Shown: positions 1 through 4,557 of the stretch, in pieces
How the letters are laid out: each line of letters begins with the position of its first letter
Numbering within the stretch: position 1 is the first letter of the stretch
IMG/VR virus record: IMGVR_UViG_2531839232_000006
Coordinates: 1 to 4,557 of that record
Source: a virus
Taxonomy: Duplodnaviria; Heunggongvirae; Uroviricota; Caudoviricetes
Length of the DNA stretch: 4,557 nt
Reading direction: 5' to 3' (one strand)
The notes under the pieces: generated by a model
Seen by the model: only the letters and a program-made list of their open reading frames with translations
Told to the model about the DNA's origin: nothing
The model's database searches: none
Position numbers and translations under genes: made by a program

Positions 1-60
1 ACCCAACCGACGGTTTACCTGTTGGATGTAAGGTTAACACATCAAATGCGCCGGAGTTGA
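1..60 (+). CDS. 3' end of an upstream gene (partial, runs off the left edge); possibly the Cro/YdaS-like partner of the following ydaT-like gene
   Basis: Frame 1 is open from the window edge to TGA at 58-60, 3 nt before the ydaT-like ATG at 64. Only 19 codons are visible (…TQPTVYLLDVRLTHQMRRS*), so no identification is possible. Frame 3 is also open here, so even the frame is uncertain. Confidence 0.25.
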   Translation, partial: TQPTVYLLDVRLTHQMRRS

Positions 61-74
61 TTCATGAAAATCAA
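57..74. promoter_or_regulatory. Perfect inverted repeat TTGATT-catgaa-AATCAA (6+6 bp arms, 6-bp spacer) spanning the ydaT-like start codon; candidate operator for the YdaT/CII-like regulator
   Basis: Read directly: TTGATT at 57-62, spacer 63-68, AATCAA at 69-74; the ATG at 64-66 lies in the spacer. As I recall, the published recognition site of CP-933P YdaT is TTGATT-N6-AATCAA; I cannot verify that here. This is the only perfect copy in the window. Confidence 0.5.
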
Positions 75-489
75 GCATGAACACATCCGCATGGCGATGA
101 ATGCCTGGGCGCATCCGGACGGCGAAAAAGTACCGGCTGCGAAAATTACCAAAGCGTATTTCGAGCTGGGAATGACGTTCCCGGAACTGTATGACGACAG
201 CCATCCGGAAGCCATGGCTCGCAATACTCAGAAAATTTTCCGCTGGGTGGAGAAAGACACTCCTGATGCGGTTAAAAAAATTCAGGCGTTGTTACCAGCG
301 ATCGAAAAAGCGATGCCGCCTCCGCTGGTGGCCCGAATGCGCAGCCACAGTTCCGCTTATTTTCGGGAGTTGGTAGAGACGAAGGAACGGCTGGTGAAAG
401 ATATTGATGATTTCGTTGCATCAGCGATCGTTCTGTTCGATCAGATGAATCGTGGTGGCCCGGCAGGAAACACTCTGGCTGTGCATTAA
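64..489 (+). CDS. ydaT: YdaT-like prophage regulator (functional analogue of lambda CII), 141 aa
   Basis: ATG at 64 with GGAG at 53-56 (7-nt spacing); stop TAA at 487-489. The N-terminus MKIKHEHI… and the size match my recollection of the Rac/CP-933P YdaT family. Position immediately upstream of a replication module fits the cII slot of lambdoid phages. Confidence 0.75.
   Translation: MKIKHEHIRMAMNAWAHPDGEKVPAAKITKAYFELGMTFPELYDDSHPEAMARNTQKIFRWVEKDTPDAVKKIQALLPAIEKAMPPPLVARMRSHSSAYFRELVETKERLVKDIDDFVASAIVLFDQMNRGGPAGNTLAVH
324..331 (+). other. Chi octamer 5'-GCTGGTGG-3' (RecBCD hotspot motif) inside the ydaT-like gene
   Basis: Exact octamer read at 324-331 on the + strand; I found no reverse-complement copy (CCACCAGC) in the window. 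Activity depends on the host being E. coli-like. Confidence 0.5.
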
Positions 490-502
490 TTGGGTAATAA
501 AT

Positions 503-1012
503 ATGAGTAATGACAAAAAATTGACACTGAGCGTTTACGAAAACAGTCCGCACATCTGGCGTGGCGGTTTATCTGATGTGGAGCTGGCAGAGTGGTTGAT
601 ACATAAAGCTAATGCGCTGCTCTGGCGTTTGTCAGCCAGAGAACAGCGCAAGGAAACCAGAATAAAGCTGGCTGATGCAGAAGCGTGTGCCGGGCTTATT
701 GAGGATTATACAAATCTTGGTATTTCTTCAGCAGAGAGTGATCCCATTCAGCCTCTGAGCAGGGAGTCAATCCAGCACGCTGGTTGTATGGCACATCTTG
801 TAACTGCTCGTCAACATGAGGTGGGTATTGGATCACTTCCGGCGGGATATTCGCTGATTCCAGAGCTGGTTGAAGCAAGAAAATCAGTTCAGAAAAAGAG
901 AGATGACGCACTTCAATTATTGAGAGAGCACTATGGCGCGATACCAGAATGCGAACAGCGTCGATACCCTGAAGGTTATGAATGGATGCAGTCTCTTTTT
1001 GAAGTTCGCTAA
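503..1012 (+). CDS. Hypothetical protein, 169 aa, function unknown; extra gene between the cII-like gene and the replication initiator
   Basis: ATG at 503, 13 nt after the ydaT stop, with only a weak GGGT upstream; stop TAA at 1010-1012. Co-directional with the operon and E. coli-like codon choice, but several rare AGA/ATA/AGG codons. No motif I recognise. The six-frame ORF begins at GTG 452, which would overlap ydaT by 38 nt and is less likely. Confidence 0.55.
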   Translation: MSNDKKLTLSVYENSPHIWRGGLSDVELAEWLIHKANALLWRLSAREQRKETRIKLADAEACAGLIEDYTNLGISSAESDPIQPLSRESIQHAGCMAHLVTARQHEVGIGSLPAGYSLIPELVEARKSVQKKRDDALQLLREHYGAIPECEQRRYPEGYEWMQSLFEVR

Positions 1013-1016
1013 TCAA
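999..1016. promoter_or_regulatory. Degenerate second copy of the operator-like inverted repeat (TTGAAG-ttcgct-AATCAA, 10 of 12 arm positions, same 6-bp spacer)
   Basis: Read directly at 999-1016, overlapping the stop codon of the 169-aa gene at the start of the 217-bp gap before rep. Only a partial match, so it could be chance. Confidence 0.2.
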
Positions 1017-1229
1017 TATGTCGAGACGAAGGTATGTTTCGGCGCGCAGCCAGGCTCTGTAATCCGGGAGCATTTCGGGGCTGTTACACCAGCGGTTTGT
1101 TGCTGCAACATTTAATACATGAGCCTGATAAAGGCTTTTCAAAAAATACATGTCGAACCTCCTCTGGTTCTGTCGATTGGGAACCACAGATTATATCCGG
1201 AGGAAGGTTCGGCACCAGATGAGGTAGCC

Positions 1230-2321
1230 ATGCGTGATTACGCAAAAGTTTCTCCGCGATTCTGGCTGGGAGAAACGGGGAGAGAACTTAGAAAGGCGGG
1301 TGCAGAAGCGCAAGTTGTTGCTTTTTACCTGATGACATCCCCTCACGCAAATATGCTGGGTTTGTATTACCTGCCAGTTTTATACCTTGCTCATGAAACC
1401 GGGCTTGGTCTGGAAGGGGCTTCAAAGGGGCTTAAAAGGGCTGTTGAAGCTGGTTTTTGTAGCTATGACCATGATGCAGAGATGGTCTGGGTCCATGAAA
1501 TGGCAGCCTGGCAGGTTGGGGAAACGTTGAAGCCTGGCGATAACCGTTGTGCAGGTGTCAGGAATGAGTATGCATCATTACCTGAAAACGCTTTTCTGTC
1601 AGTGTTTTACGACAGATATAAAACGGATTTCCATCTGGATGTGAGGCGGAATAATAGCCGAAATTCGGTAAGGGGCTTCGAAGGGGCTTTTAAGGGGCTT
1701 CGAAGCCAAGAACAGGAACAGGAGCAGGAGAAAGAACAGGAACAGGACAAAAACACTATGGTTCATGGCAAAAAAAACACCACGAACCAGGCAGGGGATG
1801 TTCAGACCGTCAATCCTGGTCAGCCAGCAGGCACGACACCGGAAGCCGATTCGGGCGCTGTGCAGCAGGTGATGACCGCAGGGTCGGAGCAATCACACCA
1901 ACTGCAGCAGCCTGAAGCCGATTCCGCCATTCAGCGGGAAGCCGATCGGGTAGTCCCGGAAAGCACCGGGCAGTCTGTGGGACGAGTGGATTATCCGGAT
2001 GTGTTCGAACAGGTCTGGCGGGAATACCCGTTGCGTGCTGGGGCAAACCCGAAGAAATCCGCTTTCAGTGCCTGGAAGGCCAGATTGCGCGAGGGGGTGC
2101 CACCAGAGACCATGCTGGATGGTGTGAGGCGTTACGCGAGATACCTGGCGGCGACCGGGAAAGCGGGAACGGAATTTGTTCAGCGAGCGACGACGTTTTT
2201 TGGGCCGGACCGGAATTTTGAAAACCCCTGGTTGCTCCCGGTAAGCGGCACGAACAACCAGCGTTGTGTGAATCATATTTCTGAACCGGATACCGAAATT
2301 CCGCCGGGATTCAGGGGGTGA
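1230..2321 (+). CDS. Phage replication initiation protein: N-terminal DNA-binding domain, acidic QE-rich linker, and DnaT-like (primosomal protein I-like) C-terminal domain; 363 aa
   Basis: ATG at 1230 preceded by GAGG at 1221-1224 (5-nt spacing); stop TGA at 2319-2321. The C-terminal tail …ISEPDTEIPPGFRG closely matches the C-terminus of E. coli DnaT as I remember it (…SEPDSQIPPGFRG). It is followed 6 nt later by a DnaC homologue, mirroring the host dnaT-dnaC operon. The alternative start at ATG 1119 has no SD and adds 37 rare-codon-rich residues. Confidence 0.85.
   Translation: MRDYAKVSPRFWLGETGRELRKAGAEAQVVAFYLMTSPHANMLGLYYLPVLYLAHETGLGLEGASKGLKRAVEAGFCSYDHDAEMVWVHEMAAWQVGETLKPGDNRCAGVRNEYASLPENAFLSVFYDRYKTDFHLDVRRNNSRNSVRGFEGAFKGLRSQEQEQEQEKEQEQDKNTMVHGKKNTTNQAGDVQTVNPGQPAGTTPEADSGAVQQVMTAGSEQSHQLQQPEADSAIQREADRVVPESTGQSVGRVDYPDVFEQVWREYPLRAGANPKKSAFSAWKARLREGVPPETMLDGVRRYARYLAATGKAGTEFVQRATTFFGPDRNFENPWLLPVSGTNNQRCVNHISEPDTEIPPGFRG
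1414..1443. repeat. Iteron-like direct repeat cluster A: AAGGGGCTT at 1414-1422 and 1425-1433, plus imperfect AAGGGCTG at 1436-1443, 11-bp period
   Basis: Read directly. The 11-bp period makes the copies fall in all three codon phases of rep (encoding EGA, KGL, KRA), which argues the repeat is selected at the DNA level. Confidence 0.55.
1670..1707. repeat. Iteron-like direct repeat cluster B: three perfect AAGGGGCTT copies at 1670, 1681 and 1692 (exact 11-bp period), ending in the 12-bp palindrome GGCTTCGAAGCC (1696-1707)
   Basis: Read directly. The copies again occupy three different codon phases (encoding RGF, EGA, KGL). Five perfect copies of a 9-mer in 4.5 kb is far beyond chance. Confidence 0.6.
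1708..1786. other. Purine/A-rich tract next to iteron cluster B: (GAACAG)-type hexamer repeats and an A8 run (1770-1777); candidate DNA-unwinding element of an origin embedded in rep
   Basis: The 14-mer GAACAGGAACAGGA occurs at 1710-1723 and 1734-1747, and the top strand is almost all purine, encoding the QEQEQEQEKEQEQDKN linker. The iterons-then-A-rich layout inside the initiator gene parallels lambda ori inside gene O. Confidence 0.35.
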
Positions 2322-2327
2322 TGTGGC

Positions 2328-3074
2328 ATGAAAAACATTGCGGCAGCCGGGGTTCTTGAACGTATTCGCAGACTTGCACCACAGGCGTCGGTTCCACCGT
2401 ACCGGACGGTGGAGGAGTGGCGGGAATGGCAACTTGCTGAAGGACGAAAACGCAGCGAGGAGATTAACCGCCAGAATCACCAGTTGCGGGTGGAAAAAAT
2501 CCTGAATCGTTCGGGCATCCAGCCTCTGCACAGCAAATGCTCGTTTGCGAATTATCAGGTGCAGAACGACGGGCAAAAATACGCGCTGAGCCAGGCCAAA
2601 TCCATAGCTGACGAACTGATGACCGGGTGCACGAATTTTGTGTTCAGCGGTAAAACCGGCACCGGGAAAAATCACCTTGCAGCGGCGATGGGTAACCGGC
2701 TGATGGCGAAGGGGCGCAGCGTGATTATCGTCACCGTGTCTGATGTCATGAGCGTGTTGCATGACAGCTACGACAACGGCAAATCCGGGGAAAAATTTTT
2801 ACAGGAGCTTTGCAGTGTTGATTTGCTGGTCCTGGATGAAATAGGCGTTCAGCGGGAGACGAAAAACGAGCAGGTGGTATTACACCAGATAATTGATCGC
2901 CGGACAGCATCACTGTGCAGTGTCGGGATGTTAACAAACCTGAATCATGCCGCAATGAGTACACTTCTTGGTGAGAGGATTATGGACCGCATGACCATGA
3001 ACGGTGGTCGATGGGTGACGTTTAACTGGGATAGCTGGCGTCCAAATGTCAGCAATATGAGGGTTGTGAAGTAA
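2328..3074 (+). CDS. dnaC: DnaC-like replicative helicase loader (AAA+ ATPase), 248 aa; prophage paralogue of host DnaC
   Basis: ATG at 2328 with a G-rich SD at 2314-2320; stop TAA at 3072-3074. Walker A GKTGTGKN is encoded at 2649-2672 and Walker B LLVLDEIG is present (about 2822-2845). Sequence is near-colinear with E. coli DnaC across the NRSGI…CSF…NY and FNWDSWR regions. Confidence 0.95.
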   Translation: MKNIAAAGVLERIRRLAPQASVPPYRTVEEWREWQLAEGRKRSEEINRQNHQLRVEKILNRSGIQPLHSKCSFANYQVQNDGQKYALSQAKSIADELMTGCTNFVFSGKTGTGKNHLAAAMGNRLMAKGRSVIIVTVSDVMSVLHDSYDNGKSGEKFLQELCSVDLLVLDEIGVQRETKNEQVVLHQIIDRRTASLCSVGMLTNLNHAAMSTLLGERIMDRMTMNGGRWVTFNWDSWRPNVSNMRVVK

Positions 3075-3095
3075 TTTTGTCCGGAGGAAATTTTA

Positions 3096-3812
3096 ATGGA
3101 AACCGTATCTGACGCACTGAAAGCACTGAAAAAAGCCTCTTCACATGTGGTGGCAGCTCGCCTTGGAATTAGTCGTGAAGAGGCTGTCAACGAACTGTGG
3201 AAACTGAAACGCCGTGGAGAAGCGGATAACAAGGGGGCGATATGGTGGCTGACTCAGGCTGGTGAAAGTGAACCGGTGTCACCGGTACCGAAAGTGACGG
3301 CGCAAATGCTGACAGAGGCGATTGAACAACATGGCCCACAAACGGCGGATGAACTGGCATTGATGTTCGGAATTACCTCCCGCCGGGCGAATTCATCGCT
3401 GGCAATGGCAATCAGCAAAGGGTGTCTGATTCGCGTGAATCAGGATGGTAAATTTCGTTACTGCATACCGGGCGTTGATTTACCGGCAGAGCCGAAAGCA
3501 GCATCCGTAGCTGAAACGGAGGGTAAAGCCCTTCCTCAGCCAGCTGGTGTTGCGTTACCAGTCCAGGAAACGGCTGCACAGGAAGAAATTAAAACAGAAG
3601 CGGTGGAGGACATTGTGAAGTTGCAGCAATCGTTCACTGAAGCGAAAGCAGATGACCTGATTCTACCATCGCTGCATGTGGCTAACCGCGAGCTGCGCCG
3701 GGCGAAAAGTAATGTTCAGAAGTGGGAGCGAGTCTGTGCTGCGCTACGGGAACTGAACAAACACAGGGATATTCTCCGGGATATTACCGCCACCAGAGAG
3801 CAGCAGCGGTGA
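3096..3812 (+). CDS. Hypothetical protein, 238 aa: two tandem winged-helix-like repeats followed by a Pro/Ala-rich linker and a C-terminal coiled-coil-like region; possibly a DUF1627-type prophage protein
   Basis: ATG at 3096 with GGAGG at 3083-3087 (8-nt spacing); stop TGA at 3810-3812. Internal repeat by eye: residues about 3-56 and 68-126 share the pattern L..A…(A/E)L(A)..(G)I(S/T)..A…L…G. The family name is from memory and unverified. Confidence 0.75.
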
Positions 3813-4126
3813 GTGGCTGGAAGAAGTGGCGCTGGGCTGAAATCCTGATACTCCGGCAGTGTGCGGGAACGATGAGAGTCGAAAGCATCGGTTATCTGAT
3901 TGGCCGTAGTGAGTCAGCCGTCAGGACGAAAGCGCGGGAACTGGGTATCAGCATGATGTTACGGGGTGATTATCACCAGTCAGCCAAATGTTCACAGCGT
4001 GATATTGAGCTGGCGTGGCAACTGCATCAGCGTGGTGTACCCCGACGGGAAATTGCCGAAAAGTTTGGGATGAAGTTGGGCGCAGTGAATAACTACGTTT
4101 ATTTCGACAGGAGGGTTCAGGAGTGA
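3809..4126 (+). CDS. Small putative DNA-binding protein, about 105 aa, with two HTH-like repeats (the first resembles the GcrA N-terminal / sigma-70 region-4 type of HTH)
   Basis: GTG at 3809-3811 overlaps the upstream stop TGA at 3810-3812 (GTGA junction); stop TGA at 4124-4126. Repeat 1 is [41 protein letters not shown] and repeat 2 is [32 protein letters not shown]. The alternative ATG at 3872 would cut off the first helix, and the six-frame start at 3722 lies inside the upstream gene. Confidence 0.6.
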
Positions 4127-4425
4127 GGGTGAGGGTTTATATCGCCGGTCCGATGACGGGATATGAAAATTTTAACCGCGAGGCATTTCACAAAACGGAA
4201 GAGGTGCTGAAACGGGAAGGGCATACCGTTTTAAACCCGGCAGTACTTCCGGACGGGCTGACTCAGCCACACTACATGGATATTTGCATGGCAATGCTCC
4301 GTTGCGTGGATGCGGTTTACATGCTGAAAGGCTGGCAGCAGTCGGCAGGTGCAGGGGCTGAGCTGGCACTGGAGGAGAAACCGGGCCATGCGGTGATTTT
4401 TCAGGAGGTGGGCAGTGAATATTGA
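4123..4425 (+). CDS. DUF4406-like small protein (nucleoside 2-deoxyribosyltransferase-like fold), 100 aa
   Basis: GTG at 4123-4125 overlaps the upstream stop TGA at 4124-4126 (second GTGA junction), with AGGAGG at 4109-4114 (8-nt spacing); stop TGA at 4423-4425. The N-terminal VYIAGPMTG motif and the later GW..S.GA..E block are what I recognise as characteristic of the DUF4406 / NDT-like superfamily. An alternative GTG start lies at 4129. Confidence 0.8.
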   Translation: MRVRVYIAGPMTGYENFNREAFHKTEEVLKREGHTVLNPAVLPDGLTQPHYMDICMAMLRCVDAVYMLKGWQQSAGAGAELALEEKPGHAVIFQEVGSEY

Positions 4426-4557
4426 CCCGGCGATAACGATTGATATGGCCCTGAACGCCGGCCTGGCACTTCTTGGTTATTTCTACATTATGTTCTGCAG
4501 CGGACGATGGCTGTCACTGTTGTTCATGAAAAAATGGAATAAACGCCGTAAGCAGGA
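4415..4557 (+). CDS. 5' part of a small putative membrane protein (runs off the right edge)
   Basis: GTG at 4415 with AGGAGG at 4403-4408 (6-nt spacing), overlapping the DUF4406 stop by 11 nt; an alternative ATG lies at 4445. The frame is open to the window end and encodes VNIDPAITIDMALNAGLALLGYFYIMFCSGRWLSLLFMKKWNKRRKQ, with a roughly 25-residue hydrophobic stretch followed by a basic patch. It is absent from the supplied ORF track, presumably because it is truncated. Confidence 0.4.
   Translation, partial: MNIDPAITIDMALNAGLALLGYFYIMFCSGRWLSLLFMKKWNKRRKQ

Follow-up and report, generated by a model that had tools for sequence, protein, structure and literature searches.

The DUF4406 protein encoded in the window (the whole stretch of phage DNA that was analyzed, 4,557 nucleotides) is a member of the NDT/DrHyd superfamily (N-ribosyltransferase clan) and not a standard nucleoside 2-deoxyribosyltransferase (NDT). 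Its family, its fold, its conserved residues and its operon position are established, and from these we infer a chemistry, a substrate and a biological role: as judged from its sequence, the protein may be a deoxynucleotide N-glycosidase or phospho-deoxyribosyl transferase acting in lytic growth, a tentative reading that we consider plausible, if somewhat short of probable.

Reading frame and operon position

The DUF4406 reading frame, its translation start and its immediate neighbours are the following.

4123..4425, + strand: DUF4406 coding sequence with a GTG start, 100 aa, stop codon included in the range, from the list of open reading frames
4109..4131, + strand: translation-start region, read from the sequence
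3809..4126, + strand: upstream helix-turn-helix (HTH) gene, 105 aa by the RefSeq start, a RefSeq CDS in identical DNA
4415..4557, + strand: downstream DUF4752-family gene, of which only the start is present before it exits the window, from the RefSeq annotation of identical DNA

The reading frame at 4123-4425 is confirmed as real, far beyond chance. Many E. coli O157:H7 genomes contain prophage DNA that matches the final 858 bases of the window (3700-4557) at 100% identity, and this prophage segment is found in 276 complete-genome records at an identity of at least 99%. In the DNA-identical prophages, RefSeq places the CDS WP_001310212.1, a “DUF4406 domain-containing protein”, at the same coordinates. 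The DUF4406 annotation is right but ordinary; both the sequence and the DUF assignment are already in public databases.

The sequence AGGAGGG (4109-4115) stands 7 nt ahead of GTG 4123. An alternative in-frame GTG at 4129 has an AGGAG of its own (4119-4123) 5 nt ahead, and initiation there results in the N-terminus MRVYIAGPM; most DUF4406 homologues begin MKIYIAGPM, M-K-I-Y-I-A-G being the usual N-terminus of the family. Because GTG 4129 with its AGGAG yields this family-typical N-terminus, the start codon is either 4123 or 4129, an uncertainty of two residues. The VYIAGPMTG motif on which the original prediction was built is present at residues 5-13 (nt 4135-4161, + strand), with Y6 and M11-G13 aligned to DNPH1 sites, and SAGAGAELALEE occupies residues 74-85 (nt 4342-4377, + strand).

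The operon in the window runs in the order YdaT/cII-like, ECs1072-like, O/DnaD-like initiator, DnaC-like loader, DUF1627, HTH, DUF4406 and DUF4752. The HTH gene (3809..4126) yielded weak Sigma70_r4_2/HTH matches in Pfam plus PHROG 323, and is translationally coupled since it overlaps both neighbours by GTGA, one of these overlaps being formed by GTG 4123 of the DUF4406 gene and the HTH stop codon. At the other end, the DUF4406 and DUF4752 genes overlap by 11 nt. We found no promoter-like site in 3000-4557, so that the DUF4406 gene has no promoter of its own, and no convincing terminator in the same interval. Given this and the overlaps on both sides, the DUF4406 gene lies inside the early-right operon of a lambdoid prophage and is translationally coupled within it. 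Because this is a replication operon, the protein would act on the nucleotide pool in lytic growth.

Several further features of the window were observed. The genes for DUF1627, the 105-aa HTH protein, DUF4406 and DUF4752 (3096-4557) overlap successively by GTGA, GTGA and 11 nt; in view of these overlaps and the lack of an intervening promoter-like site, they form a tightly coupled accessory string after the replication genes. The window is a mosaic and occurs as a whole in no complete E. coli genome and in no GenBank phage. Its best single place covers 78% at 93% identity (positions 1-3773), and the O157:H7 prophages identical over 3700-4557 are another set with a different replication module. 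Within the gene for the O/DnaD-like initiator (1409-1747) there are two clusters of three (A/G)AAGGGGCTT repeats with 11-nt spacing, at about 1413-1446 and 1669-1703 and 256 nt apart; a duplicated AAGAACAGGAACAGGA comes next and codes for the linker EQEQEQ. The arrangement resembles an iteron-type origin lying inside the initiator gene, of the sort known from lambda O. The first complete gene (64-489) carries conflicting names, matching Pfam YdaT_toxin (E 1.2e-9) and PHROG 163 “CII-like transcriptional activator” (E 4e-46). Searches of Rfam, NCBIfam and PADLOC returned no match.

Family membership and fold

Profile searches, which the original prediction had called for, place the protein in DUF4406 (Pfam PF14359) with an E-value of 2e-33 and 115.1 bits against a gathering cut-off of 22; the match extends over residues 4-92 on profile positions 2-90 of 91. 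The protein also matches PHROG 355, “nucleoside 2-deoxyribosyltransferase”, with an E-value of 4e-43. No match to the DUF4406 protein was found in NCBIfam or PADLOC, and PF05014 (Nuc_deoxyrib_tr) did not match the window protein at E<=0.1. Among 57 close relatives, sub-threshold Pfam matches were obtained to DUF1937 (52/57), DUF7768 (38/57) and Nuc_deoxyrib_tr PF05014 (21/57). DUF4406 is a very large family. Searching with a profile built from close relatives yielded 17,551 cluster representatives (clusters at 50% identity) at E<=1e-3, or 5,968 when the limit was E<=1e-10, and tblastn identified 521 GenBank phage records with DUF4406, mostly Arthrobacter, Vibrio, Gordonia, Mycobacterium and Pseudomonas phages. 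Its median dN/dS, determined over 63 related IMG/VR loci with measurable divergence, is 0.14; therefore the family is under purifying selection.

An AlphaFold2 model built from 57 sequences (mean pLDDT 87.8, pTM 0.82) has the order b1-a1-b2-a2-b3-a3-b4, with four strands only, and ends after strand 4 at residue 93 of 100. Foldseek comparison with the PDB retrieved nucleoside deoxyribosyltransferases (2a0k, 6evs), human and rat DNPH1, MilB and BcmB at a query-normalised TM of about 0.7, and PA1492/DUF1937 (PDB 1t1j) as a further match. On the strength of the confident model and these Foldseek matches, the predicted fold, a flavodoxin-like alpha/beta fold of the NDT type, is a solid assignment, and the claim of an NDT-like fold is thereby upheld. 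TIR and SLOG domains were not the closest fold or family match of the DUF4406 protein. PA1492/DUF1937 is a separate Pfam family and adds no mechanism, because its function is itself unknown.

The residues that are invariant in the family (G9, F22, P43, Y51 and S74, with E80 present in 78/79 sequences) are all kept in the window protein. Other features of NDT/DNPH1 proper are absent: the PF05014 threshold is not reached, the triad Asp/Asn is replaced, and the C-terminal cross-subunit segment is missing together with the fifth strand. All characterised enzymes of the NDT/DNPH1 group are longer than this protein, by 35-60 residues, and the name “nucleoside 2-deoxyribosyltransferase” should not be applied to it.

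Active-site residues and proposed chemistry

PDB sequences searched with the single sequence and with low-diversity profiles gave no relevant match, and hhalign of a shallow alignment (A1) against single Rcl or NDT sequences produced meaningless short matches. An alignment of 79 diverse DUF4406 sequences, down to 39% identity (A2), was therefore the basis of the residue mapping presented here. With the A2 profile, hmmsearch found T. brucei purine deoxyribosyltransferase (TbPDT, 2a0k) over its full length at an E-value of 7.7e-5, and hhalign against a DNPH1 profile placed query residues 1-100 on Rcl 8-113, a weak match (E 1.8e-4, probability 23%). Both alignments, though weak, are in the same register. 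The sequences of rat Rcl and L. leichmannii NDT were verified to be identical to PDB chains 2khz and 1f8x. The mapped sites are listed below.

4135..4161, + strand: VYIAGPMTG, end of strand 1 and Gly-rich loop, from hhalign, hmmsearch and conservation
4138-4140, + strand: Y6, aligns with Rcl Y13, the triad Tyr
within 4135..4161, + strand: M11-T12-G13, align with Rcl I18-R19-G20, the 5'-phosphate-binding loop (backbone amides)
+ strand: P39, aligns with the Pro after strand 2
4273..4287, + strand: Y51-M-D-I-C55, helix 2, from two profile alignments
within 4273..4287, + strand: Y51 (invariant), aligns with Rcl I65 (human I76), base stacking
within 4273..4287, + strand: C55, aligns with Rcl D69 and a TbPDT Asn, the triad acid
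4342..4362, + strand: S74-A-G-A-G-A-E80, from two profile alignments and conservation
within 4342..4362, + strand: S74, aligns with Rcl S87 (human S98), a 5'-phosphate ligand
within 4342..4362, + strand: E80, aligns with Rcl E93 (human E104), the nucleophile

In DNPH1, the Glu is the nucleophile, the Tyr tunes this Glu, Ser98 and loop amides bind the phosphate, and Ser128' is supplied across subunits by the C-terminal segment (PMC10603095, PMC10483697). The catalytic positions of the family can be set against this arrangement (Y6=Y13, C55=D69, S74=S87 and E80=E93 of Rcl). The acidic residue singled out in the original prediction as a candidate catalytic Glu is E80, which falls on the Rcl nucleophile in both profile alignments and stands, within the motif (D/S)-x-G-x-x-x-E, at the start of helix 3. 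By alignment, Y6 is the counterpart of a Tyr that closes strand 1 in NDT and DNPH1 and forms a hydrogen bond with the Glu. Conservation in A2 is complete for S74 and G9 (79/79 each) and high for E80 (78/79) and Y6 (71/79; seven sequences have Phe instead). At position 55, Cys predominates (52 of the 79 sequences) over Asp (12) and other residues (15 together), and 35/79 members have no acid at position 53 or 55. The Tyr-Glu pair is thus retained in the family, and the canonical general acid and the cross-subunit C-terminal segment are missing.

Compared with DNPH1/Rcl (2'-deoxynucleoside 5'-phosphate N-hydrolase; 2khz, 4fyi, 8qhq), the DUF4406 protein is about 60 residues shorter and lacks both the fifth strand and the helical extension that gives the partner-subunit Ser128'; the triad Asp80 is replaced by Cys55, and the lid residues E55/H56 align with Pro39/Ala40. 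In common with DNPH1 it has a Ser at Glu-6, the 5'-phosphate contact, where nucleoside enzymes have an Asp that binds O5' (PMC7308715); this Ser, S74, argues for a phosphorylated substrate, as far as can be read from the alignments. MilB and BcmB, which are CMP (hydroxymethyl-CMP) N-glycosidases with ribonucleotide preference, have Phe beside the Glu, and the choice of Tyr or Phe at this position sets deoxy versus ribo preference (PMC7308715); DUF4406 has Tyr in 71/79. Because of Ser74 in place of Asp, the small Gly-rich loop and Tyr6 in place of Phe, a 2'-deoxynucleoside 5'-monophosphate is a likelier substrate than a free nucleoside.

We propose that the protein would be a minimal NDT/DNPH1 (DrHyd) superfamily enzyme consisting of a single alpha/beta domain with four strands. 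With Tyr6 holding it in place, Glu80 would attack the nucleotide sugar at C1', the base would leave, and a covalent sugar-phosphate ester would form on Glu80 in a double displacement; this intermediate would then be resolved by water in a hydrolase or by an incoming base in a transferase. The 5'-phosphate would be held by Ser74, the M-T-G loop and possibly the conserved N18-R19; Tyr6 would favour 2'-deoxy sugars, and Tyr51 would stack on the base. No published activity for any DUF4406 protein was found in the literature on DUF4406, PF14359 and DUF1937. Several observations stand against an N-glycosidase or transferase: the third triad residue is Cys55, strand 5 and the C-terminal segment that supplies Ser128' in DNPH1 are missing, the solved enzymes are reached by weak alignments only (E 7.7e-5 for 2a0k, and a probability of 23% in hhalign), the neighbours in the window are DUFs and an HTH protein, and the window allele, with G78, E84 and P87 in its catalytic helix, may be impaired.

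The same small size, incomplete triad and lack of a cross-subunit segment would also suit a non-catalytic nucleotide binder that senses or sequesters nucleotides or regulates a partner enzyme, and a nucleotide-sensor role is known for inactive members of the clade (PMC9503650). However, a very large family has kept the nucleophilic Glu together with the Tyr that partners it and the phosphate-binding Ser, a pattern that catalysis and not simple binding requires, and we regard a pure binder as very improbable.

A true nucleoside 2'-deoxyribosyltransferase, swapping bases between free deoxynucleosides for salvage, is what the name of PHROG 355 and of many phage records implies. NDTs (L. leichmannii 1f8x, T. 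brucei PDT 2a0k; PF05014) are indeed the closest solved relatives detectable by sequence, the nearest being the purine deoxyribosyltransferase 2a0k, and they share with DUF4406 the Y-I-A-G-P start, the Pro after strand 2, the D-A-V/I of strand 3 and the nucleophile motif G-x-x-x-E; the Pro after strand 2, to which Pro39 corresponds, is said to be conserved in transferases (PMC12884076). Nevertheless, the O5'-binding Asp at Glu-6 is an invariant Ser, as in the nucleotide-specific DNPH1, DUF4406 lacks the Asn/Tyr-carboxylate segment found at the C-terminus of NDTs, it has M-T-G after strand 1 where NDTs have aromatic loop residues that stack on the base, and PF05014 is not reached above threshold. 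The deoxyribosyltransferase labels themselves are homology transfers and inconsistent, the same domain also being called hydrolase, MazG-like and dCMP deaminase. Free-nucleoside exchange is thus an unlikely function.

A further alternative is a counter-defence or host-manipulation glycosidase (TIR-like or ADP-ribosyl-cyclase-like) acting on NAD+, ADP-ribose derivatives or nucleotide immune signals. Against this role, Tyr6 is associated with the exclusion of 2'-OH sugars, PADLOC gave no match, the informative gene contexts point to dNTP/dNMP enzymes, and a published survey finds viral DrHyd domains predicted for NAD+ to be rare; we consider it improbable.

A deoxynucleotide N-glycosidase or phospho-deoxyribosyl transferase has a phage precedent in DmtZ of Z-genome phages, an NDT-family dAMP hydrolase and deoxyribose-5-phosphate transferase that is adjacent or fused to a Dut-like enzyme (PMC12884076). 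Like DUF4406, DmtZ is a phage-encoded member of the NDT superfamily with mixed features of hydrolases (no Asp for O5') and transferases (Pro). DmtZ differs in having about 145 aa, five strands and a Tyr-Asn-Glu triad, and in serving the synthesis of 2-aminoadenine DNA; the window contains no hint of modified DNA. There is a slight chance that DUF4406 is a widespread phage enzyme of new specificity, for instance an N-glycosidase that destroys modified or alarm-type deoxynucleotides, or a phospho-deoxyribosyl transferase by which dNMPs receive a non-canonical base. Such an enzyme would use the Tyr-Glu pair without the classical Asp, and a possible target of the glycosidase could be methylated dNMPs from degraded DNA, which are sensed by at least one defence system (bioRxiv 10.64898/2026.01.15.699771).

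The window allele and gene context in other phages

Three substitutions set the window protein apart from its relatives.

4354..4383, + strand: lineage-specific substitutions G78, E84 and P87 in the catalytic helix, from 78 related IMG/VR loci and from column counts in the family alignments

The combination (K/R)78-A84-L87 is present in 76/78 related IMG/VR loci, and G-E-P occurs only in the DNA-identical locus L003. Position 84 is Ala in 73/79 members of the family, an Ala that is also found at Glu+4 in Rcl and L. leichmannii NDT, and position 87 is Leu in 51/79; the window protein departs from the near-invariant A84 and from L87 with E84 and P87. These two residues are a peculiarity of the allele and no ground to exclude it from DUF4406. 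Relative to its nearest relatives, the window allele carries 8 non-synonymous and 4 synonymous differences, and its dN/dS of 0.58 against the family median of 0.14 is suggestive of relaxed constraint, a value that rests on twelve differences.

The window copy may thus be a decaying or functionally impaired prophage allele, whatever the function of the family, in view of the G-E-P changes, the raised dN/dS and several pseudogenes in the O157 prophage bearing the identical segment. All three non-conservative changes (R/K78G, A84E, L87P) lie within 10 codons of the catalytic helix, and L87P is unfriendly to a helix. Against impairment, the frame is intact and all invariant residues are kept, the AlphaFold2 prediction of helix 75-85 keeps a good confidence, 276 complete genomes have the allele fixed at an identity of at least 99%, maybe through clonality, and twelve differences are too few for a firm test. 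We regard impairment as possible but doubtful; the window allele is a poor choice for biochemistry.

An IMG/VR scan with the DUF4406 alignment found close enteric relatives only. The neighbours of the gene in enteric prophages are variable, comprising DUF1627, HTH, Ea22-like, Dcm-like and MT-A70-like methylases and DnaB, with no fixed partner. The context was also sampled in 14 non-enteric GenBank phages. A 4-nt overlap joins the DUF4406 gene of Vibrio phage 1.094.O to a dUTPase gene, and Xanthomonas jumbo phage RTH11 has a gene of dCTP deaminase type two positions downstream of DUF4406; Pfam confirmed both enzymes. Mycobacterium phage Ariel has, at the second position downstream, a PRA-PH/MazG-like gene and, at the fourth, a dATP/dGTP diphosphohydrolase (both Pfam-confirmed), and Arthrobacter phage Reedo a Pfam-confirmed dNMP kinase three genes upstream. 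A gene four positions downstream in Gordonia phage GMA7 is labelled “pyrophosphatase” by the depositor; Pfam confirmed neither this label nor “NTP pyrophosphohydrolase” in RTH11, and the two are not counted as established. The other sampled non-enteric records have replication/recombination genes, DNA methylases or unknowns near DUF4406. The pairing with enzymes that make dNMPs from dNTPs echoes DmtZ, which is paired or fused with a dUTPase-like enzyme much as one DUF4406 gene is translationally coupled to a dUTPase; the nucleotide-enzyme neighbours are confined to about 5/14 sampled non-enteric phage records, which weighs against an N-glycosidase or transferase.

DUF4406 is very common in temperate and lytic phages and bears conflicting GenBank names. 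Should its members prove to be dNMP N-glycosidases or transferases, phages would have in DUF4406, besides the recently described DmtZ, a widespread means of reshaping nucleotide pools, and many genomes would gain a correct gene name. The significance of the finding rests on the abundance of DUF4406 in phages and on its variant active site; for the window itself it is modest.

The conflicting labels look like propagated mis-annotations. Proteins whose labels suggested MazG or deaminase fusions are single DUF4406 domains in Pfam, and ten long representatives matched only DUF4406 in Pfam and only DUF4406-type PHROGs; because no true MazG or deaminase fusion was found, a Rosetta-stone fusion argument was dropped. 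PHROG 12019, “MazG-like pyrophosphatase”, matches the DUF4406 domain itself. Among the GenBank phage records (L093 2468-2845, L094 2474-2854, L095 2504-2872), Arthrobacter phage Daob gp55 was deposited as “deoxycytidylate deaminase”, and Mycobacterium phage Ariel gp162 and Arthrobacter phage Reedo gp27 as “MazG-like pyrophosphatase”; Pfam finds only DUF4406 in all three.

Longer proteins were also seen. The metagenomic DUF4406 proteins P0148 and P0164 have N-terminal extensions of 200-240 residues with no Pfam or PHROG match, which contain two or three repeats with the signature ...F(T/I)(K/E)WP ... DGWFW...; in Mycobacterium phage Mufasa gp55 (“hydrolase”, 253 aa), a 150-residue N-terminal part is without assignment.

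Some gene neighbourhoods stand apart from those above. The DUF4406 gene adjoins a PAPS-reductase-family gene in Pseudomonas phage Riah (L104 1999-3537) and lies two genes from a Mom-like gene in a metagenomic phage (L089/L092); with these and the Dcm-like and MT-A70-like neighbours, a link of DUF4406 to DNA modification is possible. In P2-like prophages (L084/L085 5614-7378), the DUF4406 gene is the last of the early operon, preceded by gpA, an exonuclease of RNase_T type and a 241-aa protein without assignment, with ogr and the portal gene following directly; four contigs share the same string of three genes.
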